Origin: a virus
DNA: 64,000 nt
Reading direction: 5' to 3' (one strand)
IMG/VR virus record: IMGVR_UViG_3300035034_002798
Span: 1 to 64,000 of that record
The notes under the pieces are model-generated. The model did not search any database. It was not told where the DNA came from and saw only the letters and a list, made by a program, of their open reading frames with translations. The position numbers and the translations under genes were made by a program. Of the stretch, positions 10,502 through 52,706 are shown piece by piece. Within the stretch, counting starts at the first letter, position 1. Each line of letters begins with the position of its first letter.

Positions 10502-10567
10502 ACTACATGGAGAGGGGTGAGGTCAAATCTATGATTTGACGGAATTCCCCTAGAAATGTAGTAGGTT
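10502..10567 (+). promoter_or_regulatory. dispersed hairpin element H1 (candidate ssDNA promoter, divergent copy)
   Basis: GTCAAATC-tat-GATTTGAC core with outer stems CTACAT/ATGTAG and AGGGG/CCCCT; TTGACG-20-TAGGTT on right arm. Confidence 0.5.
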
Positions 10568-10579
10568 TAGAATTAGATG

Positions 10580-11026
10580 TTAAATACTTGCCTCTATTTT
10601 TAGGATGCTGCTGTCAGTTATAAGCATATCTCTTTTAGCATCAAGAGATTTAACAATATCATCCATAAACATCTTTCTTCTCCTTAATTCTTTTTTGGCT
10701 TCGATCATTGTCTGATCCGTTTCCTCATAACTTACTCTACTGAGCGCCTCATTGACAAGTGCATCTCTTTCATCATTGTTTCTGCCTTCTTCAAATAGTT
10801 CGTTGAACAGGCCGCTTTTTACCATTGAAAGAGCTGTCTTTATGTTCTCAAAAGCACTTCTTATTCTAGAGTGAGTAACTCTTACCTCTGTGTAAACAGC
10901 GTCAATTTGAGAAATTAGATTCTTAATATCGGTTGTCGTTGGATCTGGAGGTATAACTATATCTTTAACTCTCCGCTCATAATCAAATTCAAGCTCGTTC
11001 CACTCTTCTGGAGTCAATAAGGTCAC
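10580..11026 (-). CDS. helical protein, possibly UvsY-like recombination mediator
   Basis: Size and coiled-coil pattern only. Confidence 0.35.
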   Translation of the reverse strand: MTLLTPEEWNELEFDYERRVKDIVIPPDPTTTDIKNLISQIDAVYTEVRVTHSRIRSAFENIKTALSMVKSGLFNELFEEGRNNDERDALVNEALSRVSYEETDQTMIEAKKELRRRKMFMDDIVKSLDAKRDMLITDSSILKIEASI

Positions 11027-11683
11027 CTACCTCTCAATGGACTTAATCTTACCAACTTTATCTACTAATTTTTCAAAAGTTTCTTCTACTGTTAAGTCGG
11101 TATTATCTATTTTTATATCAAATCTGGCATCATCAAGTGCTGTTTCTGTATTATGAGTTAACCATTCCTCTTTGATGATACCGTATTTTTCTTTCAGTCT
11201 TTCTTTCCTGACCTCTTCATCTGTTTCTAATCTTACTGTGTAGAAATCTTCCTGCCTTAACAAATCCATTTCTATTGGAAATCTCATATCATCAACTACA
11301 ACTCTATCGTGTTTCGGTAATTCGTCATTTATTAAATAATCTATCCAAACATCTGATTTAATATCTACTAATGTTTGGCCAAGATCCTGCAGTAGAGGTC
11401 TATTTTTACCTTCTACTGGATCATAAGAGTAAAATATATTGCCAACTGCCAATAAGGCCTTATTAAAATCGTTTATAGGTATCTGCCCAAATAAATCTAA
11501 AAGATGTTGTGTTAACTTTGGAGAAAGTTTGCCGGTATTGTCTAATAGTTCTGGCGTGTGGAGTTCTGCGATTTCTTTTATCTTGTCTGCTATGGATAAT
11601 TCTTCATTGTCAAGTTCATCTGCTATCTTATTTGCTAGCGTACTCTTACCTGTTGCCATTTTTCCAGAAATTGCTAGATTCAT
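11027..11683 (-). CDS. deoxynucleoside monophosphate kinase
   Basis: P-loop GKMATGKST, R.LLQ.LG, VVDDMRF..E, HNTETALD. Confidence 0.8.
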   Translation of the reverse strand: MNLAISGKMATGKSTLANKIADELDNEELSIADKIKEIAELHTPELLDNTGKLSPKLTQHLLDLFGQIPINDFNKALLAVGNIFYSYDPVEGKNRPLLQDLGQTLVDIKSDVWIDYLINDELPKHDRVVVDDMRFPIEMDLLRQEDFYTVRLETDEEVRKERLKEKYGIIKEEWLTHNTETALDDARFDIKIDNTDLTVEETFEKLVDKVGKIKSIER

Positions 11684-11775
11684 TGTTAGAAATATCCTCC
11701 CGTTATCTATTTATTGATATTAAATAAAAAAAGAGCCCCTATTTTTTCTAGGGACTCTTACTTAACAGAGAGAGG

Positions 11776-12333
11776 TCAATCTTTTTTAGCGTCAGACATA
11801 ATATCATTTAGGTTACTTTTTAATACTTGTCCTAATGCAATAGCTACTTCATCATCCTTGTTATCCTCGGAATCCTTTTGGCGACGAACTATTATTTCAT
11901 AATTATCGCCAAAGTCAATAGCTTTTATGACGCGTTCTTTCTGTTCCCTATACATATCTAATTCTTTGTGTAAATCCCTTATTAATTTACGGTTTTTCCT
12001 GAATATATCTAGTATATCCTTAGACATTTTTACTAACTCTTCGCCTTCTGTTATCCAATGGTCGAAGACTTCTAGGTCATTTTCTGAAGTGTCTAACGGA
12101 ATAATTTTATTCGGTTTACTTCTATCAGGTGTTTCCTCTATTTCTATTATGCCGTTATCTTCGAGTGTGTGCAGTGCTCTAAAGACTGTTGCGGTAGAAT
12201 GATTGGTTGCTGACGCGATGTCTGAAATAGATTCTTGCATAACCCCTTCATCCAATGATCTTCTTGTAATATAGTTTAATATATTATCTTCAGCTTTGGT
12301 CAATGATATTACCTCCTCTCCTTTTAATATCAA
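11776..12333 (-). CDS. winged-helix transcriptional regulator
   Basis: SISDIASATNHSTATVFRALHTLEDNGIIE HTH. Confidence 0.8.
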   Translation of the reverse strand: MILKGEEVISLTKAEDNILNYITRRSLDEGVMQESISDIASATNHSTATVFRALHTLEDNGIIEIEETPDRSKPNKIIPLDTSENDLEVFDHWITEGEELVKMSKDILDIFRKNRKLIRDLHKELDMYREQKERVIKAIDFGDNYEIIVRRQKDSEDNKDDEVAIALGQVLKSNLNDIMSDAKKD

Positions 12334-12351
12334 TTATTTTACTGTATTTTT

Positions 12352-12380
12352 AGTATATCACTTATGTATTACGAAGTCAA
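12352..12380 (-). promoter_or_regulatory. sigmaA-type promoter with GTAATAC motif
   Basis: TTGACT-17-TATACT with TG extension; GTAATAC in spacer. Confidence 0.75.
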
Positions 12381-12555
12381 TATATAAGTGATAATTTCTG
12401 TAATACACTTACTAAATACCTATTAAATAAGGGAATAATAGGGAATTAGATATAATAATGTATAGGGTGTAGGAGTTAATGTCGTATAACTCACTACTTT
12501 ACGAAATCATTATACCACACTGTGTTGAATATAGTAAGGGGTGTAATACAAAAAT

Positions 12556-12999
12556 TTACTTTAATTGAATAACTTCCATTTTAATTTCCTCTATTAGGTC
12601 CTCAGTAAGGTTATCATTATACCCATTTTTGTAATATACCGTGTTAACCCCTGCATTTATCAATATTTTAGTACAGATACTACAAGGCTTATCTGTACAG
12701 TACACCGTAGAGTCTTCTGTCTTTACTCCATGAAGAGCGGCCTGAGTGATTAGATTCTGTTCTGCATGCACACCTCTACATATTTCGTGTCGTTCACCAC
12801 TTGGTACATTTAATTCTTCTCTTAAACACCCTGTTACTTTACAGTGAGCAACATTCTTTGGGGCACCATTATACCCTGTGGCCAATATCTTTTTGTCTTT
12901 GACTAAAACTGCACCAACATTTCTTCTAAGGCAGGTTGACCTTTTAGAGGCCAACTCTGCCATTTCCATGAAGTATTGGTCCCAACTAGGCCGGGACAT
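12556..12999 (-). CDS. dCMP deaminase (ComEB family)
   Basis: RSTCLRR.VGAV, GYNGAP, HAEQN, PCSIC. Confidence 0.92.
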
Positions 13000-13333
13000 T
13001 TTCTTTCTCCACTTCTACATCTTCAACCTCAATTGCGTCAAACTCTCCGATTCTGACAGGGGTTTCTGAAATGAGATAGCCTATTCTATTTACCTTCCAG
13101 TAACCATCGAGTATGAAATCCTCTCCGTTATTTTCTAAAAGAGTATAGATGTGATACCCTTTTCTCTTGACAAGATCATACATTCTTTCTTTCATAGCCT
13201 CTCTCTCGTACTCATCCCATAAGTAGTACCAGATGTTATACTTAATTGCCTCGTCTTTATCCATTTTAGGTGGAATAAGATCAGTCTCATCCATGAATTC
13301 CTTATAGGTCTTTACTAGTTTCGGCTTTGCCAT
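12986..13333 (-). CDS. hypothetical protein
   Basis: Start moved to MAKPK behind GAGGAG SD. Confidence 0.6.
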
Positions 13334-13493
13334 CTTCTGTCTCCTCCTCATCTTTTTCTTCAACACTTCTGTGTTTATTGTACCTTAACTTTTTACTACA
13401 GGCACTACATTTATAATCCAATGATTTGGCAGTTTCTTCTTTATATACCTTCTTACAGTTGATACATAGACAATACCTGGCGACTATTATCAC
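13302..13493 (-). CDS. small zinc-binding protein
   Basis: CINC...CSAC. Confidence 0.55.
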   Translation of the reverse strand: MIIVARYCLCINCKKVYKEETAKSLDYKCSACSKKLRYNKHRSVEEKDEEETEDGKAETSKDL

Positions 13494-13496
13494 CTC

Positions 13497-13814
13497 TTAT
13501 TTCTCTGTCGTAAGTGTAATATCTTCTTCTTTTACTAACTCTTCTATATTTTCAAGTTCTACACTGTTTACATTATCCATTATCCAATCTACATCTTTAA
13601 TAGCATCTTGATATTCTGTAACACTATCGAATACAAGAAAACTCCACTGAGGATAATTGCCTGGGATTTGTTCATAACTTAATACCTTATTGTTGCCATC
13701 AGTATCTGGAATGATCACTGACCTATGCATATTATCCTCAACTGTTTGCCAAACATCTACTAAAGACTCTTTTGATTCATAAAGACCAAACTCTCTAATT
13801 TTAAGTTCTGTCAT
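13497..13814 (-). CDS. hypothetical protein
   Basis: ORF in operon. Confidence 0.55.
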   Translation of the reverse strand: MTELKIREFGLYESKESLVDVWQTVEDNMHRSVIIPDTDGNNKVLSYEQIPGNYPQWSFLVFDSVTEYQDAIKDVDWIMDNVNSVELENIEELVKEEDITLTTEK

Positions 13815-13820
13815 AATAAT

Positions 13821-15053
13821 TTATGCCCCCTTCTTATATGATATTAATTCTTCTTTATCCATTTCCAATTCTTTTATCAAATTATCTCTTTCAATGCCCA
13901 GCGCATTAGACGCTTGATTGATATATAAATCTTTCTCGGCGGGAGTAAAGGCTATCTCAAACAGTTCCTTAAGCTCCTCAATTGCCTCTATTTGAGACTC
14001 TGTAACTACCTTCCTGTATTTGTTTATAGACTTATCCAGGAAGAACTGAGAGGCAAATACGGCCTTGTTGTCGATAAATAAAGATATCTTATCTTTCATC
14101 GCATTACAGGCCTCTGCAGGATCTCCTACCTCACTCGATACTATCTTAGTAGTTATTCCTTCTTCTTTGAGTCTTTTTACCTGTCTATAGGCAAAATTAT
14201 GGCCAGCATTATCGTCATCAACAAAGATAATTACTTCATCTGCTAGCTTTTTGAGCATGTTTATGTGATGGTCAGATAAGGCAACACCCATAGTAGCAAC
14301 TGAATTGATTACATTATATTTATGAAGTAGCATTACATCTGTATAACCTTCAACAACTATGGCAGTATTGGTGTTTCTTATTTCCTTTTTAGCTTTATCA
14401 TAACCAAGTAGCAGGTTGGACTTTTTAAATATGTCCGATTCTTTCGAATTGATGTATTTTGGTCCATTTTCATCTAAAAACCTTCTGTATCCAAAACCCA
14501 CTGTTCTTCCTGCAGCATTCTGGATAGCAAAAGCTATTCGGTTCCTAATTGCTTTATAAGGATAATCGGAAGGAACTAAACCTATTCTCCATTCATCTAT
14601 ATCTTTAGTATCTAAACCCCTTTTTGACAGATACTCAAGGCCTTTCTTGTTGCTCTGAAGATTACCCCAAAACATTCTGTTTAGTTCTTCGGTTTCCTCA
14701 ACCTTTTGGATCATCCTCTTTTGTTTTGGTGATAAATCTTCTTCTGGTTTATCTATTCCAGCTCTGTCTGCAAGATGCAGAACAGCCTCCTGCCAGGTTA
14801 AATCTTCGATCTTTTCTATAAAAGATATTACATCTGATCCATTACTGTTTCTTCTTGTGCCAACTCCGCACCCATAACAATAAAACGATTGTGTTGACGG
14901 ATAAACTTTAAAACTGGCTGTATCTTCATCATGAAAAGGACAAAGGGACTGATAAATAGCCCCTTTTCTTTTTAAGTCAACATATTCTCCTATAACTTCT
15001 ATTATGTCATTTGTCTCTTTAACTTCTTCTATAAACTCATCTTCAAGATGCAT
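13821..15053 (-). CDS. dnaG: DNA primase
   Basis: CHC2 finger CPFH...CYGC, KYINS, TOPRIM VEGYTD and DDDNAG; start probably MHLEDEF. Confidence 0.92.
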   Translation of the reverse strand: MHLEDEFIEEVKETNDIIEVIGEYVDLKRKGAIYQSLCPFHDEDTASFKVYPSTQSFYCYGCGVGTRRNSNGSDVISFIEKIEDLTWQEAVLHLADRAGIDKPEEDLSPKQKRMIQKVEETEELNRMFWGNLQSNKKGLEYLSKRGLDTKDIDEWRIGLVPSDYPYKAIRNRIAFAIQNAAGRTVGFGYRRFLDENGPKYINSKESDIFKKSNLLLGYDKAKKEIRNTNTAIVVEGYTDVMLLHKYNVINSVATMGVALSDHHINMLKKLADEVIIFVDDDNAGHNFAYRQVKRLKEEGITTKIVSSEVGDPAEACNAMKDKISLFIDNKAVFASQFFLDKSINKYRKVVTESQIEAIEELKELFEIAFTPAEKDLYINQASNALGIERDNLIKELEMDKEELISYKKGA

Positions 15054-15693
15054 CCACTTCACATCCTTCTTTTTTATTATAAAAATCATCGTAACTTAAA
15101 TAATCTACTACTTTTCTTCCATTTACTACTAAAACGAAGTCACTAACATCATAAAATTCTTTCCCATCTTCTATGAGCTTTAAAGATGCGTTATTATTTA
15201 AGATATTAGCTATTTTTTCTTCTATTTTTTCAAATGGAGACATCTTATCATAAAATTCCCGGTAAAATTTTATTATCTTTTCTTCGGCAATCCATTCTCT
15301 ATCCATATTCTTGTAGTAGATATCGTCAGGTAGACTTCCTTTAATTTTATAATCTATTCTTTTATCGTCTACAGGATCGGGAGATTTATCGTAGCATTCT
15401 TTACATGCTGCCTTTAAGTTTTTTGGCCAATCAGAACCACCATCTGTCCTTCTCTTGATTCTTATGGCTTCTGTTGCCTCAGCTCCGCATTCCTGGCATA
15501 TATGATCATCACGCCAGATAACATAGTTTCTGAGTGCATTTCTTTCTTCTTTTGTTATTAATAACTTAATAGCTCTTCCCTGTACCTGTATGGCATGGCC
15601 TCTCTCAATTAATTCATTAGCTTCAGCAAGGCTGACAGGGTCTATCTCAATACCCTGCCTATTTACCACCTTAACTGGGTCTGTGTCCTCCAT
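15043..15693 (-). CDS. PLMP/RRXRR-like domain + degenerate HNH + C-terminal domain
   Basis: VKVVNRQG..I.P.....A..LI..G.A, RD.HICQECG, GG.D.PKNL..ACKEC; catalytic DH and final N/H absent. Confidence 0.6.
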   Translation of the reverse strand: MEDTDPVKVVNRQGIEIDPVSLAEANELIERGHAIQVQGRAIKLLITKEERNALRNYVIWRDDHICQECGAEATEAIRIKRRTDGGSDWPKNLKAACKECYDKSPDPVDDKRIDYKIKGSLPDDIYYKNMDREWIAEEKIIKFYREFYDKMSPFEKIEEKIANILNNNASLKLIEDGKEFYDVSDFVLVVNGRKVVDYLSYDDFYNKKEGCEVDAS

Positions 15694-15707
15694 AAACCGT
15701 CCTCCAA

Positions 15708-15902
15708 TCAGTAAATTATTATTAGATGTGTTAGTGTATAAATTAGTAGAGTGTCTCCAGCAAGCTGGATATAAAAGTTATATCTTTTTGGAGCGTTGAT
15801 GAACTGATTGTAATTCTTTATGATTACTCTGCCTATCATTCCAATATCATAAAGAGCAAATAGCAATAATAAAACACAAAATACTGTTAAATGTAATGGC
15901 AT
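15708..15902 (-). CDS. small membrane protein
   Basis: Two hydrophobic segments; AAGGAGG SD. Confidence 0.6.
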   Translation of the reverse strand: MPLHLTVFCVLLLLFALYDIGMIGRVIIKNYNQFINAPKRYNFYIQLAGDTLLIYTLTHLIIIY

Positions 15903-15916
15903 ATATGTGCCTCCTT

Positions 15917-16450: not shown

Positions 16451-16718
16451 CCTCCCATGTTTTTTTGAAATGCTTTTTGGCTTTGTCCATTATCCATCCA
16501 ATACCATTGTGGTCTTTCATATATTCATCTACAGAGTTATAAAAAAGTATAGTTGAACCATGTCCTTCAACATTATCCCAGGCCACAACTTTTCTATCAT
16601 CAGTTAACCATACTAAATGCTTATCCTGACTATCAGGTATTGATGCCGCAAACAGGGCGTCGTTTTCCTGAAGTGTTATTCCGCTAGTCCCTGTTACTTC
16701 AAATCTCAGTTTTTTCAT
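16443..16718 (-). CDS. hypothetical protein
   Basis: Overlapping operon ORF. Confidence 0.55.
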   Translation of the reverse strand: MKKLRFEVTGTSGITLQENDALFAASIPDSQDKHLVWLTDDRKVVAWDNVEGHGSTILFYNSVDEYMKDHNGIGWIMDKAKKHFKKTWEVV

Positions 16719-16953: not shown

Positions 16954-16954
16954 C

Positions 16955-17278
16955 CTATCCCTCCTCTATATCTTTTAATTCTTTTAAAACAGCGTTTTTA
17001 ATTCTTCTAATATTACCGTGAAGATTATCAAACTTTTCGTTGATTATTTCCTCTGTCTTTTCTTCAACTACATGATCAAAGACACTTTCCATTCTTTTAG
17101 CAACTTCCATAAAAGAAACTTCGTGGCCATTAACGGTGAATTCTACTTCCATAGTCTCAGAATCAAATTCCTCTTCATAAATCATACTTGAATTTTCTTT
17201 TGTGATTGCAACCAGTATCATCCAGGCTGCAAAATCGCCATTATCATTAGCCTCTATCCAATTAATAGTTTCACTCAT
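16955..17278 (-). CDS. hypothetical phage protein
   Basis: EVEFTVNG.EV.F pattern; AAGGAG SD. Confidence 0.6.
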   Translation of the reverse strand: MSETINWIEANDNGDFAAWMILVAITKENSSMIYEEEFDSETMEVEFTVNGHEVSFMEVAKRMESVFDHVVEEKTEEIINEKFDNLHGNIRRIKNAVLKELKDIEEG

Positions 17279-17322
17279 CTGACCACTCCTTTAAAAATAG
17301 TTAATCAATTCAATTGTTATAA

Positions 17323-17385
17323 ACCATTTAAGGCAAGGGGAGTCAAACGGTTTTATTGACGCCCCGAAGCCGTAATGGTAAAAGT
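17323..17385 (+). promoter_or_regulatory. dispersed hairpin element H2
   Basis: GTCAA-acggtttta-TTGAC; stems ACCATT/AATGGT, GGC/GCC, GGGG/CCCC; TTGACG-17-TAAAAG(T). Confidence 0.65.
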
Positions 17386-17389
17386 AAGT

Positions 17390-17887: not shown

Positions 17888-17909
17888 ATACCCCCAGATA
17901 TTTTATTGA

Positions 17910-18584: not shown

Positions 18585-18600
18585 TTATTAACACCTCGTT

Positions 18601-24325: not shown

Positions 24326-24619
24326 ATAGGTCGAGCAGGATTTTAACCTGCCTACCGGTTACCCTCGTCTTATTAATTACGGTGGGGCGGCGTTTCCCAC
24401 ATCTCTTTTTATAACCTTAATCTAATTGCTATCATAAAAGTTAATGTTGATTTATTTCAGTGCTTACCAAAAGAATAAGGTAGTGATAGTTGCCCGTTCT
24501 ATCCTCGTAGTTAATTAGACTTCGGATTTTGTATTTACATTCCGACCATTAGTAAAAATGAGAGGGAGGTTTCCTATTGCAGTTAAGAAAGAGCCGGCTA
24601 AAGCTCGACTACCTCCCCC
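24326..24619 (-). ncRNA. candidate structured ncRNA with tRNA-like 3' end
   Basis: ORF-free gap; 3' T-arm-like GCAGG-TTAAAAT-CCTGC then TCGACCTA; long helix GTCTAATTAACTACG/CGTAATTAATAAGAC. Confidence 0.5.
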
Positions 24620-24679: not shown

Positions 24680-25135
24680 TTAAAATGGAACATCTACATT
24701 ATTTTGGTTGGGATTAGAGTTCTGGTTGTAGTTTCCTTGATTATTGTTCTGCTGATTGTTGCGCTGGTTGTTATTGCGTTGATTGTTCTGCTGATTATTG
24801 TTCTTCCCACTATTTTTAGCAGAATCTAAAAACTCAACGTTATTTGCTCTTACTTCAATCCAGGTCTTTTTATCTCCACTTCTGTCGTTATAGGAGTCTA
24901 CTCTGATTGCACCATTTACTGCCACTTTACGTCCTTTATTCAGATACTGATTTACTGTGCCTGCAAGTTTCCCCCAGCATACAATAGGTACAAAATCTGT
25001 ACCCTGTTCTCCATTAGAGTCAGTGTACGGTCTATCTGCCGCCAGTCTGAAATTGGCCTTTGGAGTGTTGTTATTTCCAACCTCCTGATATTCTGGGTCT
25101 GCTGTCAACCTACCGATTAAATTAATGTTATTCAT
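24680..25135 (-). CDS. ssb: single-stranded DNA-binding protein
   Basis: N.I.LIGRLT.DPE, DFVPIVCWGKLA, KG..VAV.G, N/Q-rich linker, DVPF tail. Confidence 0.95.
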   Translation of the reverse strand: MNNINLIGRLTADPEYQEVGNNNTPKANFRLAADRPYTDSNGEQGTDFVPIVCWGKLAGTVNQYLNKGRKVAVNGAIRVDSYNDRSGDKKTWIEVRANNVEFLDSAKNSGKNNNQQNNQRNNNQRNNQQNNNQGNYNQNSNPNQNNVDVPF

Positions 25136-25189: not shown

Positions 25190-25256
25190 ACCGCTCAGAA
25201 GGGGGATAAATCAAGTTGTTTTTTACTTGAATTATCACCCGATGAGTGGCATTAAT
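25190..25256 (+). promoter_or_regulatory. dispersed hairpin element H3 (directly upstream of ssb)
   Basis: TCAAG/CTTGA core, CCGCTCA/TGAGTGG outer stem; TTGAAT-17-CATTAA(T). Confidence 0.55.
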
Positions 25257-30776: not shown

Positions 30777-30805
30777 AGTATATCAGTTTCATTTATGAAT
30801 TTCAA
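30777..30805 (-). promoter_or_regulatory. sigmaA-type promoter for the PLMP-HNH/dnaE operon
   Basis: TTGAAA-17-TATACT with TG extension; GTAATAC motif at 30751-30757. Confidence 0.7.
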
Positions 30806-35551: not shown

Positions 35552-35755
35552 TTATCTATGGTATCCTTCCTGTTTAAGATAAGCTATCAACTCGTCTTTT
35601 TCTTCAAATATAAGCATATTAATCTCTGGTCCAACCTCAACTCCAATATATTTGTTGTCAATTTCCCAAATAATGATTGTGTGCCCTAAAGCCCTGCTTT
35701 TAAATAAGAAATTCTTATCCTTGTAAAAATCCTTATCAAAATCTATAGAAATCAA
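35552..35755 (-). CDS. hypothetical protein
   Basis: ORF in operon. Confidence 0.5.
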   Translation of the reverse strand: MISIDFDKDFYKDKNFLFKSRALGHTIIIWEIDNKYIGVEVGPEINMLIFEEKDELIAYLKQEGYHR

Positions 35756-36033
35756 ATAGCTTCCTCCTTTCTTTTTTCATTTCTCTCTTTCCGTATCTCC
35801 TCAACAGTCTTATCTGGATATTTATTAGATATCTTATCCAGAACATTCTCAAGGTACTCTACATCGCGCTCCATAGACTTAACTGTTTCATCTATTTCAC
35901 ACCATTCGTCAAATTCGAGTAAACCAAGGCCAGACGCAAATGATAGCCCCTCATTAAAAGAGTTAAGTTTTTCTGTAATTTCACCTAACTCTTCTTTGAA
36001 CTGTCTTGATATTTCTACTGGACCTGCAGCCAT
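35752..36033 (-). CDS. hypothetical protein
   Basis: AAGGAGG SD. Confidence 0.6.
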   Translation of the reverse strand: MAAGPVEISRQFKEELGEITEKLNSFNEGLSFASGLGLLEFDEWCEIDETVKSMERDVEYLENVLDKISNKYPDKTVEEIRKERNEKRKEEAI

Positions 36034-36077: not shown

Positions 36078-36141
36078 ACCCACACGATTAAGGGGCGTCA
36101 AGTGGTTTTCTTGACGTCCCGCGATGAAGTGTGGTAGAACT
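36078..36141 (+). promoter_or_regulatory. dispersed hairpin element H4
   Basis: GGGGCGTCAA-gtggttttc-TTGACGTCCC, CCACAC/GTGTGG; TTGACG-18-TAGAAC(T). Confidence 0.65.
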
Positions 36142-42175: not shown

Positions 42176-42204
42176 AGTATATCATTTAGTAATACAAAAA
42201 TCAA
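42176..42204 (-). promoter_or_regulatory. sigmaA-type promoter with GTAATAC motif
   Basis: TTGATT-17-TATACT with TG extension. Confidence 0.7.
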
Positions 42205-42247: not shown

Positions 42248-42712
42248 TTAAAAAGGTACATCCTTGTCATTACCATTGTTATAGTTTTGAGCCTGGCTGG
42301 CGTTCTGTCTCTGGTTAGGTGCAACCTGTTGCTGATTTCTGTATTGCTGTTGCTGGCCATTGTTCTGCTGATACTGATTGTTCTGGTTGTTACCGTTATT
42401 CTTATTAGGTGAATCTAAAAACTTCACGTTATCAGCCACAAACTCGTGACCGTATTCTTTCTCGCCATTCTTTTCAGTTACATAAGAACGATAACTACAC
42501 TCTACGGCAACTAAACGGCCTTTGCTGAGGTGTTTTGCACAAATCTCTCCAAGACCGTTCCAAGCTGAGATAGGAGGATAGTCAACAGGTCTGTCACCAT
42601 TATCGTCGCTGTAATTTCTTTCAACAGCCAAAGTCATCAAGGTCTTATTGCGTCCGTTTACAGTAAATACGTTAGGGTCCCTTACTAATCTTCCCACAAA
42701 TGTTGTACTCAT
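42248..42712 (-). CDS. ssb: second single-stranded DNA-binding protein
   Basis: VGRLVRDP, LAVER, KGRLVAVE, ADNVKFLD, Q/N linker, DVPF tail. Confidence 0.92.
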   Translation of the reverse strand: MSTTFVGRLVRDPNVFTVNGRNKTLMTLAVERNYSDDNGDRPVDYPPISAWNGLGEICAKHLSKGRLVAVECSYRSYVTEKNGEKEYGHEFVADNVKFLDSPNKNNGNNQNNQYQQNNGQQQQYRNQQQVAPNQRQNASQAQNYNNGNDKDVPF

Positions 42713-42754: not shown

Positions 42755-43186
42755 CTATACAGCCTGTCTTTTAAGCTTAGACTCCTCATAGTAATCAATA
42801 AACATATCTTTATTAGATTCTGACATAAAAAAGCTTTCAATTTCCTCACAAATACTTATTATATTAAGGTGACTGCCTGCCACACTTGATTTAGACATTC
42901 CTGAGACAACAGGAGAGGAATCTATATCCTCTAAAATTCCCTCGTGAACCTCTTTTTCAACAGCGATAAACTTAAGTACAGTGTTTATAAAATCCCTACC
43001 AGTATCCTTAAAATTGTGATTATTATACACTTCATAATAGTTATCGAGTATCATCTTATTCTCAACTAGAAACTCATAGAAGTTCCTAAGCTGTAATAAT
43101 CTGATATCCTGTATCTTTTGACCAGAAGTCTCATCTAACATTTGATTGTAATCAGATAAAACTGAATCTATAATATCTCCAATCAT
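42755..43186 (-). CDS. hypothetical protein
   Basis: AAGGAGGTG SD. Confidence 0.6.
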   Translation of the reverse strand: MIGDIIDSVLSDYNQMLDETSGQKIQDIRLLQLRNFYEFLVENKMILDNYYEVYNNHNFKDTGRDFINTVLKFIAVEKEVHEGILEDIDSSPVVSGMSKSSVAGSHLNIISICEEIESFFMSESNKDMFIDYYEESKLKRQAV

Positions 43187-43254: not shown

Positions 43255-43316
43255 AGCTGGAATAACCAAGACTGTCAAATGGTTTTCTTGACAGTTGCCG
43301 GTTATGGAAGCATTCT
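43255..43316 (+). promoter_or_regulatory. dispersed hairpin element H5
   Basis: ACTGTCAA-atggttttc-TTGACAGT, ATAACC/GGTTAT; TTGACA-17-CATTCT. Confidence 0.65.
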
Positions 43317-43411: not shown

Positions 43412-43891
43412 CTATACAGCGCAATCACTCCTAATATCGAATTTTATTTCTGGATAATCTCTTTTAATTGAGGTATAATTTTTGGTACTTACTACAAGAT
43501 GGTCAATAATCGGAATATTAAGCAGAATACCTGCTTCTATTAAATTCTCAGTAACTCTGATATCATCATCACTTGGCGTACTGCGGTCACTTGTGTGGTT
43601 ATGCGCTAGAACAATTGCCGTTGCATTCATCAAAATAGCGGCCTGAAAAACACTTGAGGTATCAAATATTGCTTTATTGATAGAACCTCTTGAAATTTCC
43701 ATATAACCTATGACATTATTGTTATTATTTAGTCCTACAGCAACCATTATTTCTTTTGGCCGAAGGTCTAATTCGACCTCTCTTACCAGAAAATCATAAA
43801 AACTTGTGGGATCAGTTACCTTATATTCAGCAGACATTTCTTTTTCCTTGACTGGTTTCAATCTCAAGTCATATTCTTTTATCACTCTCAT
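43412..43891 (-). CDS. RadC-like JAB domain protein
   Basis: E...L...N.VIG...IS.GS, AHNHTS....PS.DD, IDHLVV. Confidence 0.88.
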   Translation of the reverse strand: MRVIKEYDLRLKPVKEKEMSAEYKVTDPTSFYDFLVREVELDLRPKEIMVAVGLNNNNNVIGYMEISRGSINKAIFDTSSVFQAAILMNATAIVLAHNHTSDRSTPSDDDIRVTENLIEAGILLNIPIIDHLVVSTKNYTSIKRDYPEIKFDIRSDCAV

Positions 43892-43903
43892 ATTTTCTCC
43901 TTT

Positions 43904-44440: not shown

Positions 44441-44452
44441 TTTCCTCACCTC

Positions 44453-44914
44453 CTACTTTAATGAATAAATATAAAGTTGCTTATCTGATTCAGAATATAC
44501 GTGTTTTATTATATTCTTAACTTTATTCCAGTCGCCGCCGGCAAGGCCGCAACCGATGAATTTCGGGATAGCAACAGCTCCTTCAAAGCTGTCTCTTAAC
44601 TTAATAAGACATATCTGGAGTGCTTGATAGTCCGTGTATCGTTTATCTCTGCCATATCCATACTGACTAAACATATTGACAACTGCTTTATCGTTCTCAG
44701 TTTCAATTACCTGTATCTTACCTAATAGATCGTCAACCTTATCGTGAGCCATCTTATATTGAGCAAAAACTTCTGGATAGGAGTTTTTTATCTGTTTTGC
44801 AAGTCCTGCACCCATCACACCCTTGCAATTAACCTGGTGAGCGATGGCAACTACATCATCTCTATTGAAAGCACTTAGTAAATCTCCTTTAATATTAGTG
44901 AACAAATGAACCAA
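44453..44914 (-). CDS. macrodomain (ADP-ribose processing) protein
   Basis: KGDLL, AHQVNC.GVMGAGLAKQI, AIP..IGCGLAGGDW. Confidence 0.9.
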   Translation of the reverse strand: MVHLFTNIKGDLLSAFNRDDVVAIAHQVNCKGVMGAGLAKQIKNSYPEVFAQYKMAHDKVDDLLGKIQVIETENDKAVVNMFSQYGYGRDKRYTDYQALQICLIKLRDSFEGAVAIPKFIGCGLAGGDWNKVKNIIKHVYSESDKQLYIYSLK

Positions 44915-44949
44915 CTCCTTAAAATATTTTATTAATCTACCCTAAATAA

Positions 44950-45013
44950 ACCGAAAACGACCAAGACTGTCAAATGGTTTTCTTGACAGTAGCCGGCCGT
45001 TGTAGGTAGGTCT
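44950..45013 (+). promoter_or_regulatory. dispersed hairpin element H6
   Basis: Core identical to H5 (CCAAGACTGTCAAATGGTTTTCTTGACAGT) with different, still pairing outer arms; TTGACA-18-TAGGTC(T). Confidence 0.65.
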
Positions 45014-47041: not shown

Positions 47042-47191
47042 TGTTTAAGCACTCCTTTCATTTTCGTATAAGAATTCCTGTTTGATATTTTCTAATCATA
47101 CTATCCTGCTTTTATATTATTAAAGAAACATGATTGTTTAGTATTAAAATATTAAGTTATTATAATAATTTAATATTTTAGTAACAAAGTA

Positions 47192-47220
47192 AACCCCGCT
47201 AATTAAAGCGGGGTTCTTTT
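47192..47220. terminator. bidirectional intrinsic terminator
   Basis: AACCCCGCT/AGCGGGGTT stem with T-rich flanks. Confidence 0.65.
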
Positions 47221-47225
47221 ATATA

Positions 47226-47609
47226 TTATTTAATTATTTTTACAGCATCATTAACCGTAAAACATTTTAGATATAGTTTTGTTCTATTTATTGAACTGTC
47301 AATATCATAAACTGGCTCATTAAATTTAACATCAAAACAACCATCGCTAAAAATAATCTTACCTTCTATCCAATTGCCCTTGTGATTTAAAGCAAGCGTG
47401 TTTATTTTAACTTCATCTTTATTGTATATTCTGTTATCCCTTTTATCCTTCATGCCTGTGTATTGACCCACAGTTTCGGGAATAACTTCATTTTCTTTTG
47501 TGTCTATATATACTTTGCCGTCACGACCGTGTATTAGATCACCATATACATAATGACCAAGCTCTTTGTGTTTGCCCTTGAAATGTATTTCATCTATTTC
47601 CATTTTCAT
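47226..47609 (-). CDS. YopX family protein
   Basis: I.FKGK......VYGDL, VIPETVGQYTG.KDK....IY..D. Confidence 0.85.
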   Translation of the reverse strand: MKMEIDEIHFKGKHKELGHYVYGDLIHGRDGKVYIDTKENEVIPETVGQYTGMKDKRDNRIYNKDEVKINTLALNHKGNWIEGKIIFSDGCFDVKFNEPVYDIDSSINRTKLYLKCFTVNDAVKIIK

Positions 47610-47811
47610 TTATAATCACCCTTTGCATTGTTTAGAAGAACTAACATTTTTTATTATTTGATTTATTCTTTCTTTATATATTTTTATTCTTTTTTCTGAA
47701 TCAGGTTTTTTTCTGATAGGTGGGTATAAACATATCAAAACCAGATAAAAAACTACTGAAGGTTATCATTAACATCATCTCCTAATAATTTTATTTAATT
47801 CAACTATCACA

Positions 47812-47874
47812 TACCTGTGTGAGCAAGTTCGTCAAACGGTCTTCTTGACGAGCACAGCTCTAAACAGGTAGATT
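47812..47874 (+). promoter_or_regulatory. dispersed hairpin element H7
   Basis: GTTCGTCAA-acggtcttc-TTGACGAGC, GAGC/GCTC, TACCTGT/ACAGGTA; TTGACG-18-TAGATT. Confidence 0.65.
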
Positions 47875-48505
47875 AGTTTTTGACCTTTTTGCGGATACTA
47901 TTTAAGTTTAAATTCCATACAGGGATGCGATCCTGTACTTTTTCTGATAGGTACTGTGGTCCATCTCTGAAAATAGCAATAAAAACTGTGTTATTTGTTT
48001 TAACATTGATAATTGAGTTAAATTCGTGCTCTCTATGCCGAAGGCCGTCTATATAGTCAGCTCTATCTGGGTCTTCGATAGTTTCGCTGGCCCAGGCATA
48101 CTGGGCATTTGATATATTAGAGTTTCTTAAAGCCTGCTTGGCGTCCTCAACAATCTCATCTGATCTTGAAGCATGTTCAACTATAAATGCCTTATCATAA
48201 GCTTCTACCTTTTCCAGTTTATTTCTGATATACATATTTTCATCGGAAATGGTGCGCGGCAGAACAACAACAAACTTGGCATTCATATTCATTAAAGCTT
48301 CCATAAAGTGTATAGACTGACTAATAGCTGGAAGAGCAAACACATAACCCTGATTGTGCAACTGTCCCAACTTAGACATAATAGGCTTTCTAATTAATTG
48401 ATACTCCCTGTAAGAGATACGGGGCAGGTCGATTACACACCAGTTAGAATATTTTCTTGTTAAGGAACCTAGTCCATCATTTGTTGAATACTGAGTATAA
48501 GCCAT
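47873..48505 (-). CDS. hypothetical protein (weak SLOG/YspA-like alpha/beta pattern)
   Basis: AAGGAGG SD; fold guess only. Confidence 0.5.
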   Translation of the reverse strand: MAYTQYSTNDGLGSLTRKYSNWCVIDLPRISYREYQLIRKPIMSKLGQLHNQGYVFALPAISQSIHFMEALMNMNAKFVVVLPRTISDENMYIRNKLEKVEAYDKAFIVEHASRSDEIVEDAKQALRNSNISNAQYAWASETIEDPDRADYIDGLRHREHEFNSIINVKTNNTVFIAIFRDGPQYLSEKVQDRIPVWNLNLNSIRKKVKN

Positions 48506-48569
48506 TTTAATTCCTCCTTATAATATTTGCCCCCGAGTAGATAAAACCCGAGGGCGCAGACAAGGTAAA

Positions 48570-49421
48570 CTATGCAGCCATCAACTTAACTGTGTTCTCT
48601 AAATAAAACTTAAAGTCGCTCCAGTGATAACCTGGTAGAGCAAGTAACTCCCTTAAGTCTCTATCAACAACTAATCTCATATCAACCAACTGTTTAAGAT
48701 ACTTTGTTTTATCTAACTCCTCAGAATGAACTGTGTCTCCCTTATAGGTAAAGGTAAACTTTAAGACGTCTCTTAACTCATCATGCATTAAGTTAACATC
48801 AACTACGTTTTCATCTTTATTGAGAATTTCATCTTCCTGTATAAGTTCAACAATTTTACTTAGCTCTTCAACTAATGCATTTTCATCATTCATATAAGGC
48901 TCAAGCTCGGGTTCGGAGTAGAGCTGATATAATGAATCTTGACCATCAATGAAAGACTGAATTAAATCAGATAACTTAATCTCTTTTGCAGTAGCGATAG
49001 TTTTAAATGAAATCTGTTCTTCTGATTCTGAGATTACCTTTTCTAAGATGTCTTTATGATGCTGGACGGTAAATAATTCCTCGTTCTCCTCAACAAATGA
49101 ATCATCATAAACTGATTTAGATAGCTCTAAAGACTGTTCTGATACCTTTATATCGATTGTTTCATCTTCACTGAGACCAGGATTAAAGTTACTAAGACTT
49201 ACTTTATAACTATTTCCATCCTCTGTTATAAGTGTCTTACCAATCTGATTTTCATTAGTAAGCAATAAAAGCATAGGAACCATATCAAATCCGCCATAAA
49301 CACCAACAGAATCTTCAGCCATCTCTTCAGGTAAAAGACCACTCTCTTTATTTGTCTTAATTGCGTCCATCCAACCTTCAAAAAACTCTTTTACATTAAC
49401 ATTCTTTATCATAATTATCAT
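48570..49421 (-). CDS. acidic hypothetical protein
   Basis: 283-aa ORF, AGGAG SD. Confidence 0.6.
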   Translation of the reverse strand: MIIMIKNVNVKEFFEGWMDAIKTNKESGLLPEEMAEDSVGVYGGFDMVPMLLLLTNENQIGKTLITEDGNSYKVSLSNFNPGLSEDETIDIKVSEQSLELSKSVYDDSFVEENEELFTVQHHKDILEKVISESEEQISFKTIATAKEIKLSDLIQSFIDGQDSLYQLYSEPELEPYMNDENALVEELSKIVELIQEDEILNKDENVVDVNLMHDELRDVLKFTFTYKGDTVHSEELDKTKYLKQLVDMRLVVDRDLRELLALPGYHWSDFKFYLENTVKLMAA

Positions 49422-49436
49422 CTCCTATAAGTATTT

Positions 49437-49778
49437 TTAGTTACTAAAAGCTCTTCTCTTCTTTTCAGCTATCGCTTTTTCAGTGAGTTCATAAACAGGT
49501 GCAACAACATATCCACTCGTGATTTCATCGATTCTTTCATCTTTGATAACTTCAGCCTTTATCAACGCTTTTGCCATCCCTTCATTCTCGCTCCAATTCT
49601 TGATAGCGACCTGGTGACCGGGAAGGTTGACAAGATTGACAGTTGCCGTTGTGAAAGGCATACCTTCTTCTACGGTTGTGAGAGTTATTGCGACGTTATC
49701 GTTTTCTACATAGTGACTGAAATTGACATCACAAAGCTCTCCATGATAATCCACAACTATTTCGGACATAATTAACAA
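49437..49778 (-). CDS. DUF4313-like protein
   Basis: Y..N.N.AI.L......PF..ATVNL, SGYV..PVY. Confidence 0.6.
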   Translation of the reverse strand: MLIMSEIVVDYHGELCDVNFSHYVENDNVAITLTTVEEGMPFTTATVNLVNLPGHQVAIKNWSENEGMAKALIKAEVIKDERIDEITSGYVVAPVYELTEKAIAEKKRRAFSN

Positions 49779-49801
49779 CTCCTTTATAAGATAGTTAAAT
49801 T

Positions 49802-49887
49802 AATCTAACTTTAACAAACCCTCGCGAGCAAGCCTGTCAAATGATCTTCTTGACAGGCGCCGCGAAGTCGAAGGGTAGAACTAGATT
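49802..49887 (+). promoter_or_regulatory. dispersed hairpin element H8
   Basis: GCCTGTCAA-atgatcttc-TTGACAGGC, ACCCT/AGGGT, bubble, AATCTA/TAGATT; TTGACA-20-TAGAAC(T) with the -10 in the bubble. Confidence 0.65.
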
Positions 49888-50591
49888 TAGCTGGCGTTTT
49901 GAAATTCTTCGGGAGGTCTTAAGTCTGGTGGAACGGCATGTATTAGCTCTCCATTTATGATATAACCTTCGGTGCAGGATGGGTTATCAAATACTAAATA
50001 CTGTTCATCATTGTATCTAGCAAGTGTCCAGCTCCTGTGCTCAATAGAATACATGACGCGGCGGCAGTGGTCAGAATTATAATCAAACTCTAAGTGACCA
50101 AACCCTATATTAAACTCCTTTGGTGGCCACTGTTCATTCTCGTTTATCACCTTAGCCATATACTCAGCCACTTCCTTTATCTCAAAGTCTATATAGTCAA
50201 GTAAGTCCTTTTCATTAGGACCCTGAACAAAGTCTAAAAAGGCTTCACTCTTCCAGTCACCATTCTCTGTGTCGAAGACCATCAACTTCTTTGGTGTTTC
50301 CATAGTATATCTGGCAATAAGTGATGCAGTACCTGTCAAAGGACTAGAAATACTGCCTACTAGAATAACCTGTGTCGAATAATCTATTAACTGAATAATA
50401 TAATCTTTGTCACTACCATCTGGCTGGTGACTATCATTGAAATTAGCATAGATACTATCTATTACGTCTGATTGGATTTCGGGGACCACAACCTTGCGAT
50501 CACCTTTTTGTCCTAAATTGTTCAAAATACCCTTACAATAATTAATAATCTTGTCTGATTTACCCATTGGGAACACTATAACTCTTTCCAT
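49887..50591 (-). CDS. hypothetical protein
   Basis: 234-aa ORF, AGGAAGGA SD. Confidence 0.6.
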   Translation of the reverse strand: MERVIVFPMGKSDKIINYCKGILNNLGQKGDRKVVVPEIQSDVIDSIYANFNDSHQPDGSDKDYIIQLIDYSTQVILVGSISSPLTGTASLIARYTMETPKKLMVFDTENGDWKSEAFLDFVQGPNEKDLLDYIDFEIKEVAEYMAKVINENEQWPPKEFNIGFGHLEFDYNSDHCRRVMYSIEHRSWTLARYNDEQYLVFDNPSCTEGYIINGELIHAVPPDLRPPEEFQNAS

Positions 50592-50684
50592 TTATATCCT
50601 TCCTTTCTTTATTTAGGAACTATTTAATGCCAACAAGGCCATTTTTAAGCAATTATTCGAAGTTTTTAACGTCATAACATGATT

Positions 50685-50732
50685 TGGTTAGTATCGACTT
50701 GACAAAATGGGGGTTTTTGACGGTATTATATA
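50685..50732 (+). promoter_or_regulatory. 19-bp-spacer promoter class, copy 1
   Basis: TGGTTAG...cTTGACAaaa, 19-bp spacer, TATTATATA; same layout at 60739 and 62776. Confidence 0.6.
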
Positions 50733-50735
50733 AAT

Positions 50736-51080
50736 AGAGCGTCACTTTTCTGGGAAAAGGACTTTGGTCTTAATTCTTAGGCCTTTCGAGTTCTGTGATT
50801 TGAAAGTCTCCAGAAAACACAACACTGACGCTTTAACGAATTTGATATCAGAACTAAAGACGTTACTTGAACTTAGTTAATCAGTTATTGAACGATTTAT
50901 TGACAACTACCTAAAATGGGAGAGGTGTACTAAGAGGAGTGTCCTCTCAGACTCTTACATTCAGGGATAAATCCCTAAAAACCCTGGACTCATTGTTAAA
51001 AAGGGAGGGCGCGCAATAGCAGGTACACAAAAGTAACATTCAGATAGAGATCCCTTCTTAGGTGAAACCCTCTCCCCTTT
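50736..51080 (+). ncRNA. orphan large structured ncRNA, HEARO/omegaRNA-like architecture
   Basis: Nested helices with G-U wobbles on + strand, pseudoknot-type pairings, promoter immediately upstream, no ORF. Confidence 0.6.
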
Positions 51081-51120
51081 CAATTGCGATTGTTTTCCCC
51101 TGTCCCTTAACTATAATACC

Positions 51121-51149
51121 AGTGTATCATTTCTGTAATACATAATCAA
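51121..51149 (-). promoter_or_regulatory. sigmaA-type promoter with GTAATAC motif, convergent on the ncRNA
   Basis: TTGATT-17-TACACT with TG extension; near-copy of the promoter at 42176. Confidence 0.65.
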
Positions 51150-51319
51150 TAGTCATAACATAACTTATATACCTATCTCGTAATACAACCAAAAAGCCCG
51201 GCGCGGCAGGGAACATTATAACCATACTCTTGATTCTCCTTCTAATAGTGGTACTACTAACTCTACTAAGGATACTAAGGATACTAGCCAACTAGCCACT
51301 ACTAACTCACCCCCCAATA

Positions 51320-51425
51320 CTGCTTGCACTTGCACTTGTACCAGTAACTGTACCAGCACCTACACTTACACAATTGCTTACAATGTTACCAACACTTACA
51401 CTTGCGATTACATCTCCACTCACAA
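51320..51425 (-). repeat. distal copy of parS-like hexamer repeats
   Basis: Reverse complement reads GCAAGT/ACAAGT/GCTGGT/GTAAGT units like 58126-58505. Confidence 0.55.
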
Positions 51426-51623
51426 TAATGAATACAGACCAACCTGTTCCCTATTACACATCACTAAGAATACGACTGTCTCTCCCCGTCACACCTCACT
51501 ATTATTTAAGAGATGACTGTGACACGACACTTACTCTCCTTCGTATCGACTAATGTTGTCACTACCTATTCAATCACCTCATAACTAGATGTAACCACAA
51601 CTTATATAGATGAAAAGAACAAT

Positions 51624-51740
51624 TAATATAGGAGTAACTAAACCTGTAATATATGGGTAACTAGACCTGCTCCCTTAATATAGGGGTAACAATTAATATA
51701 TGGGTAACTAGTAATATAGGGGTAACTAGACCTGCTCCCT
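51624..51740 (+). repeat. five iteron-like 15-mer direct repeats
   Basis: TAATATA(G/T)G(G/A)GTAAC at 51624, 51647, 51676, 51694, 51712; two followed by TAGACCTGCTCCCT. Confidence 0.8.
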
Positions 51741-51850
51741 CCGGCCTCGGCGAATCTTCCCCCTAATACGGCTATACGAGATTAGCACGCTAGAGGGTCA
51801 TATGAGCGAGACCAGAGTTGAGAGGCTTCAATATATAGCTTAGATGCTAA

Positions 51851-52321
51851 CTAGTCCTTAAGCAGGCGCTCACGGACGAGAGAGAGTATATATCCCATCT
51901 TCGCTTTGTCCCTGTAGGTTTCCTGTGGGAATAGTTTCTTGCCATCATAGTCTATATTAATCGTGAAGCTAGTTTTGGTATCTCTTCTAGGGTTATAAAT
52001 CGAACCTTGTACGCGTGCCAGGCCTGAGGCAGGGTGTCTCCCTAGGGCGTCGGCAAGTTTAGACTGGTCTATATTAACACTTTCGAGCTTAATATCCTCC
52101 TGAAAGGCTCTACCTGAGCTGAAAGCTAGGTACCAGGGTTTATTTTCGGGCTTAGAGGCCACTTTGGTGCATTCATCTAAGAACACACGCATAGTATTAC
52201 CCTCACTTGTAGTAACGGGTAGTACATAGTGACCAAAGGTGCTATTATAGAACGGATTACCTTCTACTTTATATTTACCTCTCCAGCCTTCTACCTTCAC
52301 TGTATCGTTTTTAGTAATCAT
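51851..52321 (-). CDS. hypothetical protein
   Basis: GAGGAG SD. Confidence 0.6.
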   Translation of the reverse strand: MITKNDTVKVEGWRGKYKVEGNPFYNSTFGHYVLPVTTSEGNTMRVFLDECTKVASKPENKPWYLAFSSGRAFQEDIKLESVNIDQSKLADALGRHPASGLARVQGSIYNPRRDTKTSFTINIDYDGKKLFPQETYRDKAKMGYILSLVRERLLKD

Positions 52322-52579
52322 CTATTTACTCTCCTCTCTGCTTGCCTGAGCCTGGATTACTTCATAGTCATTATATACTCCTTGTTGGCCAAGAGAACGA
52401 ACACAACTGCCATCGTCGTAGAAAGTATACGACTCAACTACCGGGCCATCATCATCTCTGGCGATATCTAAATTAAGGCTGATATCATCACACTGGATAT
52501 TCTGAATCTTTTTCTGTTCCATAACCTCTGACATAACACTAATTTGTCTGTAACTTAACTCAAAATGCATATTAACCAC
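52322..52579 (-). CDS. hypothetical protein
   Basis: AAGGAG SD. Confidence 0.55.
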   Translation of the reverse strand: MVNMHFELSYRQISVMSEVMEQKKIQNIQCDDISLNLDIARDDDGPVVESYTFYDDGSCVRSLGQQGVYNDYEVIQAQASREESK

Positions 52580-52635
52580 TCCTTATATAGTATTTACTTA
52601 AAGACTAATAAACTGAACAACTAATAAATCTTACC

Positions 52636-52706
52636 CAATACGTATCCACGACCACCGCGGCGTGTCAAATGGGTTTCTTGACACGGTAGGACGGGCGTGA
52701 TATTGT
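52636..52706 (+). promoter_or_regulatory. dispersed hairpin element H9
   Basis: CGTGTCAA-atgggtttc-TTGACACG, CACG/CGTG, CAATA/TATTG; TTGACA-17-TATTGT with TG extension. Confidence 0.65.

Follow-up and report, generated by a model that had tools for sequence, protein, structure and literature searches.

In one virus record of 170,948 bp (IMG/VR record IMGVR_UViG_3300035034_002798), positions 1 to 64,000 (this whole stretch is referred to here as the window) carry nine dispersed intergenic hairpins, H1 to H9, each upstream of a minus-strand gene and each with a promoter-like arm on the strand antisense to the genes. Judging from sequence and predicted folding, we tentatively favor reading the nine elements as template-strand hairpin promoters that are read by the host σA RNA polymerase (RNAP). 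If so, a tailed jumbo phage might gate host σA transcription by DNA structure, with nine promoters that would come into being only upon unpairing and folding of the template strand, an extension that we put forward slightly more tentatively still. With the same reservation, the principle of the Frpo promoters, which are read from single-stranded DNA (ssDNA), could on this DNA-structure-gating reading have evolved independently in a phage of a Firmicutes-type host.

Structure, distribution, and covariation of the hairpins

The pattern GTCAA-N9-TTGAC occurs eight times in the window, as compared to 0.32 expected copies, and none of 100 shuffled sequences reached eight; a ninth copy, near 25210, is a register-shifted variant (TCAAGT-N8-ACTTGA). 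A covariance model (R1) built from 19 family members retrieved exactly nine copies from the window, all on the + strand (37 to 58 bits, E ≤ 2e-8). The next-best R1 matches were the same nine sites on the − strand (at most 15.6 bits, E of at least 0.05), and everything else had an E of about 1 or worse; no R1 copy was found in the structural arm (64–85 kb). Pattern count and covariance model, mapped along the contig, thus bear out an earlier note on this DNA, which had described nine dispersed intergenic hairpins with a shared core.

Each hairpin spans 53 to 61 nt and folds in three tiers: an internal loop separates the outer stem from the middle stem, above which is an apical stem capped by a 9-nt loop; fold z-scores range from −2.3 to −5.6 for the + strand as DNA and from −1.4 to −5.5 for the − strand as RNA. 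All nine lie in intergenic gaps, starting 0–20 nt past the upstream stop codon, with about 40–75 nt between the hairpin base and the next start codon. As the earlier note had stated, each copy precedes a minus-strand gene, including both ssb genes (H3 and H5) and the Macro to RadC genes (H6).

The outer arms are unlike between copies, yet they pair within each copy. When each left arm was joined to each right arm via the common core and folded, cognate combinations reached −23.9 (sense) and −26.0 (antisense) kcal/mol with RNA parameters, as compared to −13.4 and −13.9 kcal/mol for non-cognate combinations; with DNA parameters, the corresponding values were −12.7 and −14.3 for cognate and −6.4 and −6.6 kcal/mol for non-cognate arms. 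The claim that differing arms still pair is therefore upheld, with cognate arms about 10 kcal/mol better than non-cognate ones, and by this comparison of sequences the hairpin is under selection.

A pattern scan together with a protein walk led to a relative (phage B), represented by a 202,621-nt ENA contig that is also present in JGI samples; between 10 and 58 kb of the window, the two phages are syntenic, with amino acid identities of 35–70%. Phage B carries seven orthologously placed copies (H1, H2, H3, H4, H5, H8, and H9) in the same orientation relative to the genes; no H6 orthologue was found at the corresponding site. The stems of these orthologues are largely rewritten (e.g., the G-rich middle stem of H2 is an AG-repeat stem in phage B), and among 90 consensus pairs across the orthologue sets, as given by crude sequence alignments, 15 changed on both sides, none on one side, and eight are broken. 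More distant H9 orthologues were found in two further contigs, L122 and L128 (flanking protein of L128 38% identical), and an H4-like copy is present in the otherwise unrelated contigs L029 and L031, with hexamers TAGAAT and TATAAT; the L029 copy directly precedes a DUF488 gene (DUF488-N3, L029:177-833).

Scans of IMG/VR found no match with the exact core and seven unrelated matches (terminators or chance) with a degenerate core; IMG/VR held no relatives of the PcfJ-like protein or of a 314-aa protein of this phage, and the portal protein led to two short contigs of structural genes, neither of which has hairpins. In metagenome and genome contigs, the degenerate core was matched 59 and 45 times, which is about chance level by a rough estimate from 16 fixed bases; true relatives among them were L023/L051/L069 and L029/L031, the others being unrelated repeat families or single matches. 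The core pattern occurred only at control frequency in Bacillus jumbo phage 0305phi8-36 and three relatives, and Moorella phage MTATph1 had no comparable intergenic repeat family. Rfam gave no match in the window at the gathering threshold that would account for the hairpins, and none overlapping them at E ≤ 5 within 42–53 kb.

Hairpins that share the apex also occur in other organisms. The chromosomes of Halobacillus, Thalassobacillus, and Sediminibacillus contain many multi-tier hairpins of about 85 nt, the apex of which is the same 19-mer as in the phage elements, and another repeated hairpin sharing this apex was seen in Anaerolineales metagenome-assembled genomes; the −10-like flank is absent from both groups.

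Promoter geometry on the template-strand arm

Geometry was read on the strand antisense to the genes (the window + strand) in 20 elements from four or more lineages. A −35-like box, TTGACN, stands at the hairpin apex (TTGAAT or TTGAGT in H3) and is separated from a −10-like hexamer by a spacer of 16–20 nt (17 or 18 nt in 14 of the 20), with TGn at −15 to −13 in 12 elements. Position −12 is a pyrimidine, which forms the last stem pair (T:A or C:G) in most elements and is unpaired in the window copies of H3, H4, and H9. The A at −11 is unpaired in all 20 elements, the opposite base being A or C and never T. Good hexamers include TATTGT, TAGATT, TAAAAT, and TAGAAT/TATAAT. The right-arm hexamers and spacings listed in the earlier note were correct on re-check: the A at hexamer position 2 is invariant, pairing stops at this A in all copies, and the mirrored minus arm has T or G at that position instead. 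The T at position 6 or 7 is present as described, but it is a weak signal because the flanks are T-rich.

With a σ70-type position weight matrix (PWM), the mean best score was 8.9 for the template-strand arm and 6.2 for the sense-strand duplex reading (mirrored arm), as compared to a mean of 4.0 and a 95th percentile of 8.0 for random 73-nt windows; five elements scored 11.3–14.8, matching the phage's conventional promoters (9.4–13.9). On the sense strand, 12 nt beyond the partner of −12, the sequence is T|G in nine of the ten elements scored by script, and T|A or T|G in most others by inspection; this is the position where the +1 of a canonical promoter falls. Predicted 5′ untranslated regions (UTRs) after this +1 are about 30–60 nt long, and T/G-rich motifs (TTGTAT, TGTGTT) follow the hairpins. 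By DNA energies, 15 of 18 elements have a more stable hairpin on the antisense (template) strand than on the sense strand (Wilcoxon p = 0.0016, with orthologues not independent).

Two duplex promoter arrangements were considered and set aside. A sense-strand duplex promoter has no TANNNT at a consistent spacing of 16–19 nt, and several elements in the relative have none; a second candidate, combining CTTGNT in the 3′ arm with TAGATT, fits just three to five copies by eye and was not adopted.

From the structure, covariation, strand-specific geometry, and placement observed, we infer that the folded DNA form may be the active one. Folding of the template strand explains both the selected hairpin and the promoter-like arm that points the "wrong" way, because the 3′ arm becomes the leftward non-template strand. 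In the folded + strand, the 3′ arm would thus be the non-template strand of a leftward promoter and the 5′ flank its template; the apex TTGACN would act as −35, the interrupted stem as the 16–20-nt spacer that often ends in TGn, and the stem would end at −12/−11, so that the −11 A stays unpaired, as in the fork junction of an open complex. For a fork-junction template, it is enough that −12 is paired and that the A at −11 of the non-template strand is not. RNAP, most probably the host σA holoenzyme, would copy the + strand leftwards from a start about 12 nt beyond the stem base, at the conserved T|R, and would yield sense transcripts of, among others, ssb1, ssb2, Macro/RadC, and the dnaG operon. 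In duplex DNA, the sense strand has T or G at −11, and the promoter is therefore proposed to be off.

The strand might become unpaired by supercoil-driven extrusion, aided by the very AT-rich downstream flank and by SSB, or by replication or recombination exposing the + strand. The earlier note had proposed a + strand that is single-stranded over more than 40 kb; local extrusion under supercoiling, as in phage N4, would serve as well. The AT-rich flanks and the two phage ssb genes would be compatible with SSB-aided extrusion.

Several points weigh against template-strand promoters. The geometric argument of the earlier note survives and extends to relatives, but beyond the Y-A the hexamer shows little conservation (the relative has CAAGGG, CACAGA, and CACGCT, for example), with T at −7 in about 8 of 20 elements, and the spacers of H1 and H8 are 20 nt long. 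We know of no single-stranded or extruded + strand state for a tailed double-stranded DNA phage, and it is costly to extrude an imperfect palindrome of 55–60 nt that has internal loops besides its 9-nt loop. If an origin lay at the strand switch at 58 kb, a leftward fork from there would presumably expose the − strand and not the + strand. The elements are stable hairpins as RNA too (−19 to −28 kcal/mol), and with RNA parameters the sense-strand folds have more G-U pairs (29 vs. 12), so that as a strand test wobble-pair asymmetry conflicts, energies favoring the template strand and G-U counts the sense strand. In 13 of 14 core-type copies from the window and phage B, the loop ends are, by eye, G...Y on the sense strand, where G-U or G-C pairing is possible; on the template strand, the same loop ends are usually A...C. 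Finally, conventional promoters and terminators delimit the units in which the hairpins are found, no terminator precedes the hairpins there, and they would therefore be part of any read-through mRNA as well.

Conventional signals and alternative explanations

Three near-identical conventional promoters of the form TTGAnn-17-TGATATACT were found on the − strand at 12352–12380, 30777–30805, and 42176–42204; these are presumably host σA early promoters of the phage. Weaker conventional promoters were seen at 47187 and 25648, and GC-rich terminators at 47216, 42233, 39601, 24664, 11759, and 4727. No conventional promoter or terminator was found in the hairpin-bearing gaps, and the hairpins are a second class of element beside these conventional signals. 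An intrinsic terminator function was rejected, as a terminator scan picked up none of the nine hairpins in full and just the apex of H5, for which the supposed tail is itself part of the hairpin; the phage's actual terminators are of a different class.

The hairpins may instead act as RNA, with the promoter likeness being coincidental, an explanation that we consider doubtful but only slightly less likely than template-strand promoters; they could then be intercistronic processing or stability elements in long polycistronic early or middle mRNAs. Among the roles this would allow, each held with the same doubt, are cleavage sites of the RNase III or RNase Y type, 3′-end protectors of the upstream cistron, and 5′ stabilizers of the downstream cistron. 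Hairpins with processing or stability roles are known in early transcripts of T7 and SP82, where RNase III sites (the R-sites of T7) are interrupted intercistronic hairpins of about 60 nt that share sequence and are repeated along long early transcripts. The elements described here likewise are interrupted hairpins of about 20 bp between cistrons, in units without an upstream terminator; they start 0–20 nt past the upstream stop, the sense-strand RNA folds have energies of −18.7 to −27.9 kcal/mol (z down to −5.5) and 17–21 pairs, of a length that suits RNase III, the loop ends can pair on the sense strand, sense folds have more G-U pairs, and the phage has RNA-type hairpins elsewhere (e.g., the C(UUCG)G hairpins next to H9). 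However, an RNA function leaves unexplained why the apex is the exact −35 consensus, why the arm has promoter-like length with TGn at −15/−14 and an invariant unpaired −11 A, and why the distance from the stem base to T|R is 12 nt; T7 and SP82 RNase III sites have neither promoter geometry nor a fixed downstream start point. Outside the loop-closing pair, wobbles are about even between the strands (about 16 vs. 12), unlike in a typical RNA family, and the family has no Rfam match and is absent from the structural (late) arm.

Template-strand hairpin promoters could also serve a phage RNAP encoded on the unseen 60% or so of the genome, following the logic of N4, as middle-class promoters of the non-structural arm; we regard this as unlikely. 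It draws on the terminase link to 0305phi8-36, which has an RNA-dependent RNA polymerase (RdRP)/YonO-like RNAP gene (PF05183, E = 1e-20) and for which 14 phage-specific "21-bp promoters" in the non-structural arm have been described along with this RNAP (Hardies et al., PMC2147016). In the sequence of 0305phi8-36 (EF583821.1, 144–212 kb), we found the "21-bp promoter" motif to form a covarying mini-hairpin, in which a stem of variable sequence encloses CGT-GCGA-ACG and the GCGA loop belongs to the antisense strand relative to the genes. The non-structural arm has 17 such copies, all facing the same way and each with a T/G-rich motif and then a Shine-Dalgarno sequence behind it; further copies are found in the terminal repeats. 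No hairpin is described for this motif in the text of the 2007 paper (PMC2147016).

These motifs of a distantly related lineage match the elements described here in placement, orientation, and template-strand bias: both are dispersed in one orientation just upstream of genes, in the non-structural arm only, both are covarying hairpins with the stable loop on the template strand, and T/G-rich motifs follow in both phages. In sequence and size, however, the elements are wholly unlike the 0305phi8-36 motif, which is an unrelated mini-hairpin of 6–8 bp with no −35/−10 likeness, and the σA-like features would have to be coincidence. Whereas 0305phi8-36 encodes the RdRP/YonO-like RNAP, none was found in the 85 kb available here, which are about 39% of the genome: no match to PF05183, to σ70 region 2 or, by tblastn, to ORF99 was found in these 85 kb or in about 77 kb of phage B, and no large RNAP-like open reading frame (ORF) was seen in the same 85 kb. 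The closest cultured relatives besides 0305phi8-36 also lack PF05183, and the Moorella phage has no such repeat family.

Finally, it is very improbable that the elements are ordinary duplex signals, i.e., rightward antisense σA promoters, whose short transcripts would be complementary to the 3′ ends of upstream genes, or a palindromic operator beside back-to-back −35 boxes to which a dimeric regulator would bind, because, even though the + strand arms are the best duplex promoter matches in these gaps (a simple promoter scan lists H9 and H7) and the 19-bp core is palindromic in its outer 5 + 5 bases, outer-arm pairing would be unneeded and yet the arms covary completely between copies and orthologues, the conserved 9-nt center is asymmetric, nine antisense RNAs without a common target have no obvious purpose, and a 14-bp half-site spacing is unusual for a dimeric helix-turn-helix protein.

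Individual elements and the phage that carries them

All nine elements are on the + strand, with the promoter-like sequence on the 3′ arm, and all genes named below are on the − strand. H1 (10502–10562; TTGACG-20-TAGGTT; 36.8 bits) is located upstream of a gene encoding a 283-aa protein (9603–10454); its apex is a variant of 8 bp with a 3-nt loop, and its orthologue in phage B has an 18-nt spacer. H2 (17323–17379; TTGACG-17-(TGG)TAAAAG; 51.1 bits) precedes a 107-aa gene (16955–17278), and the operon behind it continues to dnaG. The variant-core element H3 (25191–25249; TTGAAT-17-(TGG)CATTAA; 39.1 bits) is upstream of ssb1 (24680–25135). A skipping-rope RNA (RF02924) was identified at 24374–24513 on the − strand, just downstream of the ssb1 terminator (58.6 bits, gathering score 36.7). 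H4 (36080–36134; TTGACG-18-(TGG)TAGAAC; 51.1 bits) is followed by a 93-aa gene (35752–36033), and H5 (43256–43311; TTGACA-17-CATTCT; 46.7 bits) by a 143-aa gene (42755–43186) and ssb2 (42248–42712). The highest-scoring element, H6 (44950–45007; TTGACA-18-TAGGTC; 57.7 bits), stands upstream of Macro (44453–44914), a 114-aa gene, and RadC (43412–43891), with a predicted +1 near 44938; in phage B, the Macro/RadC region includes a DUF488-N3 gene (L116:17589-17921).

H7 (47812–47870; TTGACG-18-TAGATT; 50.1 bits, PWM 11.3) is upstream of a tiny ORF and YopX (47226–47609). This ORF of about 22 codons, directly after H7 at 47740–47805 (−), has its own Shine-Dalgarno sequence and is separated from the YopX gene by an A-rich spacer of about 130 nt. 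H8 (49818–49876; TTGACA-20-TAGAAC; 44.8 bits) precedes a 113-aa gene (49437–49778) and a 283-aa gene; in its phage B orthologue, the 20-nt spacer is kept and the hexamer is TAAAAT. H9 (52647–52699; TTGACA-17-(TGA)TATTGT; 51.2 bits, PWM 13.1) is upstream of an 85-aa gene (52322–52579). Its 3′ arm is close to the phage's conventional TGATATACT, the H9 antisense arm being TGATATTGT, and its orthologues in phage B, L122, and L128 keep the TGn-TA. Between H9 and a 435-aa gene, at 52707–52860, two hairpins with C(UUCG)G tetraloops were seen on the gene-sense strand, suggesting a structured 3′ UTR or a small RNA. A further stretch of 1,259 nt (50592–51850) has no ORF of at least 60 aa on the tiling path and no Rfam match at E ≤ 5. 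The genes behind the hairpins (encoding SSB, Macro, RadC, and DUF488 proteins, near PcfJ, RtcB, and NADAR) resemble the cargo of plasmid anti-defense islands.

The full record is a perfect palindrome of 2 × 85,474 bp, with no mismatch to its own reverse complement and its center at 85,474, which leaves 85.5 kb of unique sequence. A Logan contig from one lake-water run extends about 7 nt past the center and then diverges, and a palindromic contig of 228 nt from another run crosses the center; a fold-back or assembly artifact at a short natural palindrome is the likeliest origin. In IMG/VR, the record ends are labeled "inverted terminal repeats", and the sequence enters the completeness figure twice; since the CheckV completeness of 78% refers to the doubled record, the true genome is about 220 kb, of which about 39% is on the contig. 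The window DNA is present in only three lake-water DNA metagenome runs; no sequencing run with RNA was listed as carrying a stretch of the window.

Genes for the large terminase, portal, and major capsid proteins are on the + strand beyond 64 kb, with ParA at 58.5 kb, and all genes from 58 kb down to 1 kb are on the − strand. This minus-strand arm encodes replication and repair proteins (DNA polymerase III alpha, beta clamp, DnaG, UvrD, SNF2, and RecA) as well as dUTPase, dNMP kinase, RtcB, NADAR, the two SSBs, Macro, RadC, YopX, and the PcfJ-like protein. The nearest terminases are those of Moorella phage MTATph1 (42% identity) and 0305phi8-36 (36%). The element is thus a tailed phage, with kinship to jumbo phages of the 0305phi8-36 type; the earlier note's "phage-like element" captured the phage nature but was too weak a term for a tailed phage with terminase, portal, and major capsid genes. 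Strong Shine-Dalgarno sites and promoters with TGn-extended −10 make the setting look Firmicutes-type. Megablast of 36–53 kb against plasmids and phages found no close relatives, and distant blastn of 43.2–45.0 kb against phages gave no match.

Comparison with known hairpin promoters and significance

Among the closest parallels are the Frpo/ssi hairpin promoters, which host RNAP reads on ssDNA, which lie upstream of ssb, and which SSB stimulates (PMC11541004). As in Frpo/ssi of F and ColIb-P9 (PMC11541004, PMC8708921), a template-strand hairpin would rebuild −35 and −10 with a mismatched or unpaired −10 (here from sequence), the promoter is predicted to be off as duplex, and several copies stand in one orientation upstream of ssb and counter-defense-type genes. 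However, the elements are in a tailed jumbo phage and not in a conjugative element, with no oriT or T-strand; their −10 is at the stem base or beyond and not inside the stem; and the copies are spread over 42 kb in a Firmicutes-type setting. No relaxase or type IV secretion system genes were seen among the ORFs scanned, and blastn of a 17-kb stretch and of a single hairpin against 72,556 plasmid records gave no match. On paper, the elements would work like Frpo/ssi, yet they are not members of that family.

N4 hairpins have a stem of 5–7 bp and a 3-nt loop, and a giant T7-like virion RNAP (vRNAP) reads them via a G at −11. The hairpins described here, at 53–61 nt, are three-tiered with a σ70-type −35, TGn, and a −11 A, and no vRNAP gene was seen. 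The proposed likeness to the N4 early promoters is the use of a template-strand DNA hairpin as a phage promoter; supercoiling together with SSB extrudes the N4 hairpins from duplex phage DNA (PMC13492108), so that long ssDNA would not be required. At the minus-strand origins of filamentous phages and the single-strand origins (sso) of rolling-circle plasmids, host RNAP holoenzyme recognizes −35/−10-like boxes in folded ssDNA; unlike the nine sites before operons found here, those give short primers from one site per replicon, and the present phage has its own DnaG primase.

For promoters that are formed by folded ssDNA and read by host RNAP, the known settings are thus few (conjugative plasmids, filamentous-phage origins, and rolling-circle plasmids), and the hairpin promoters of N4 serve that phage's own polymerase. 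The elements are small and precisely defined, and they come with a clear prediction of the off state (T at −11 in duplex). Should they instead be RNA processing sites, they would represent a new, well-delimited structured family with good comparative data. If they are promoters as proposed, a promoter that takes shape only in the folded template strand would be new for a tailed phage and would imply an unrecognized single-stranded or extruded state of a jumbo phage genome early in infection; expression of the ssb, counter-defense, and replication operons would be tied to DNA topology or to replication or recombination intermediates, and structure-gated transcription would be a wider strategy of mobile elements.

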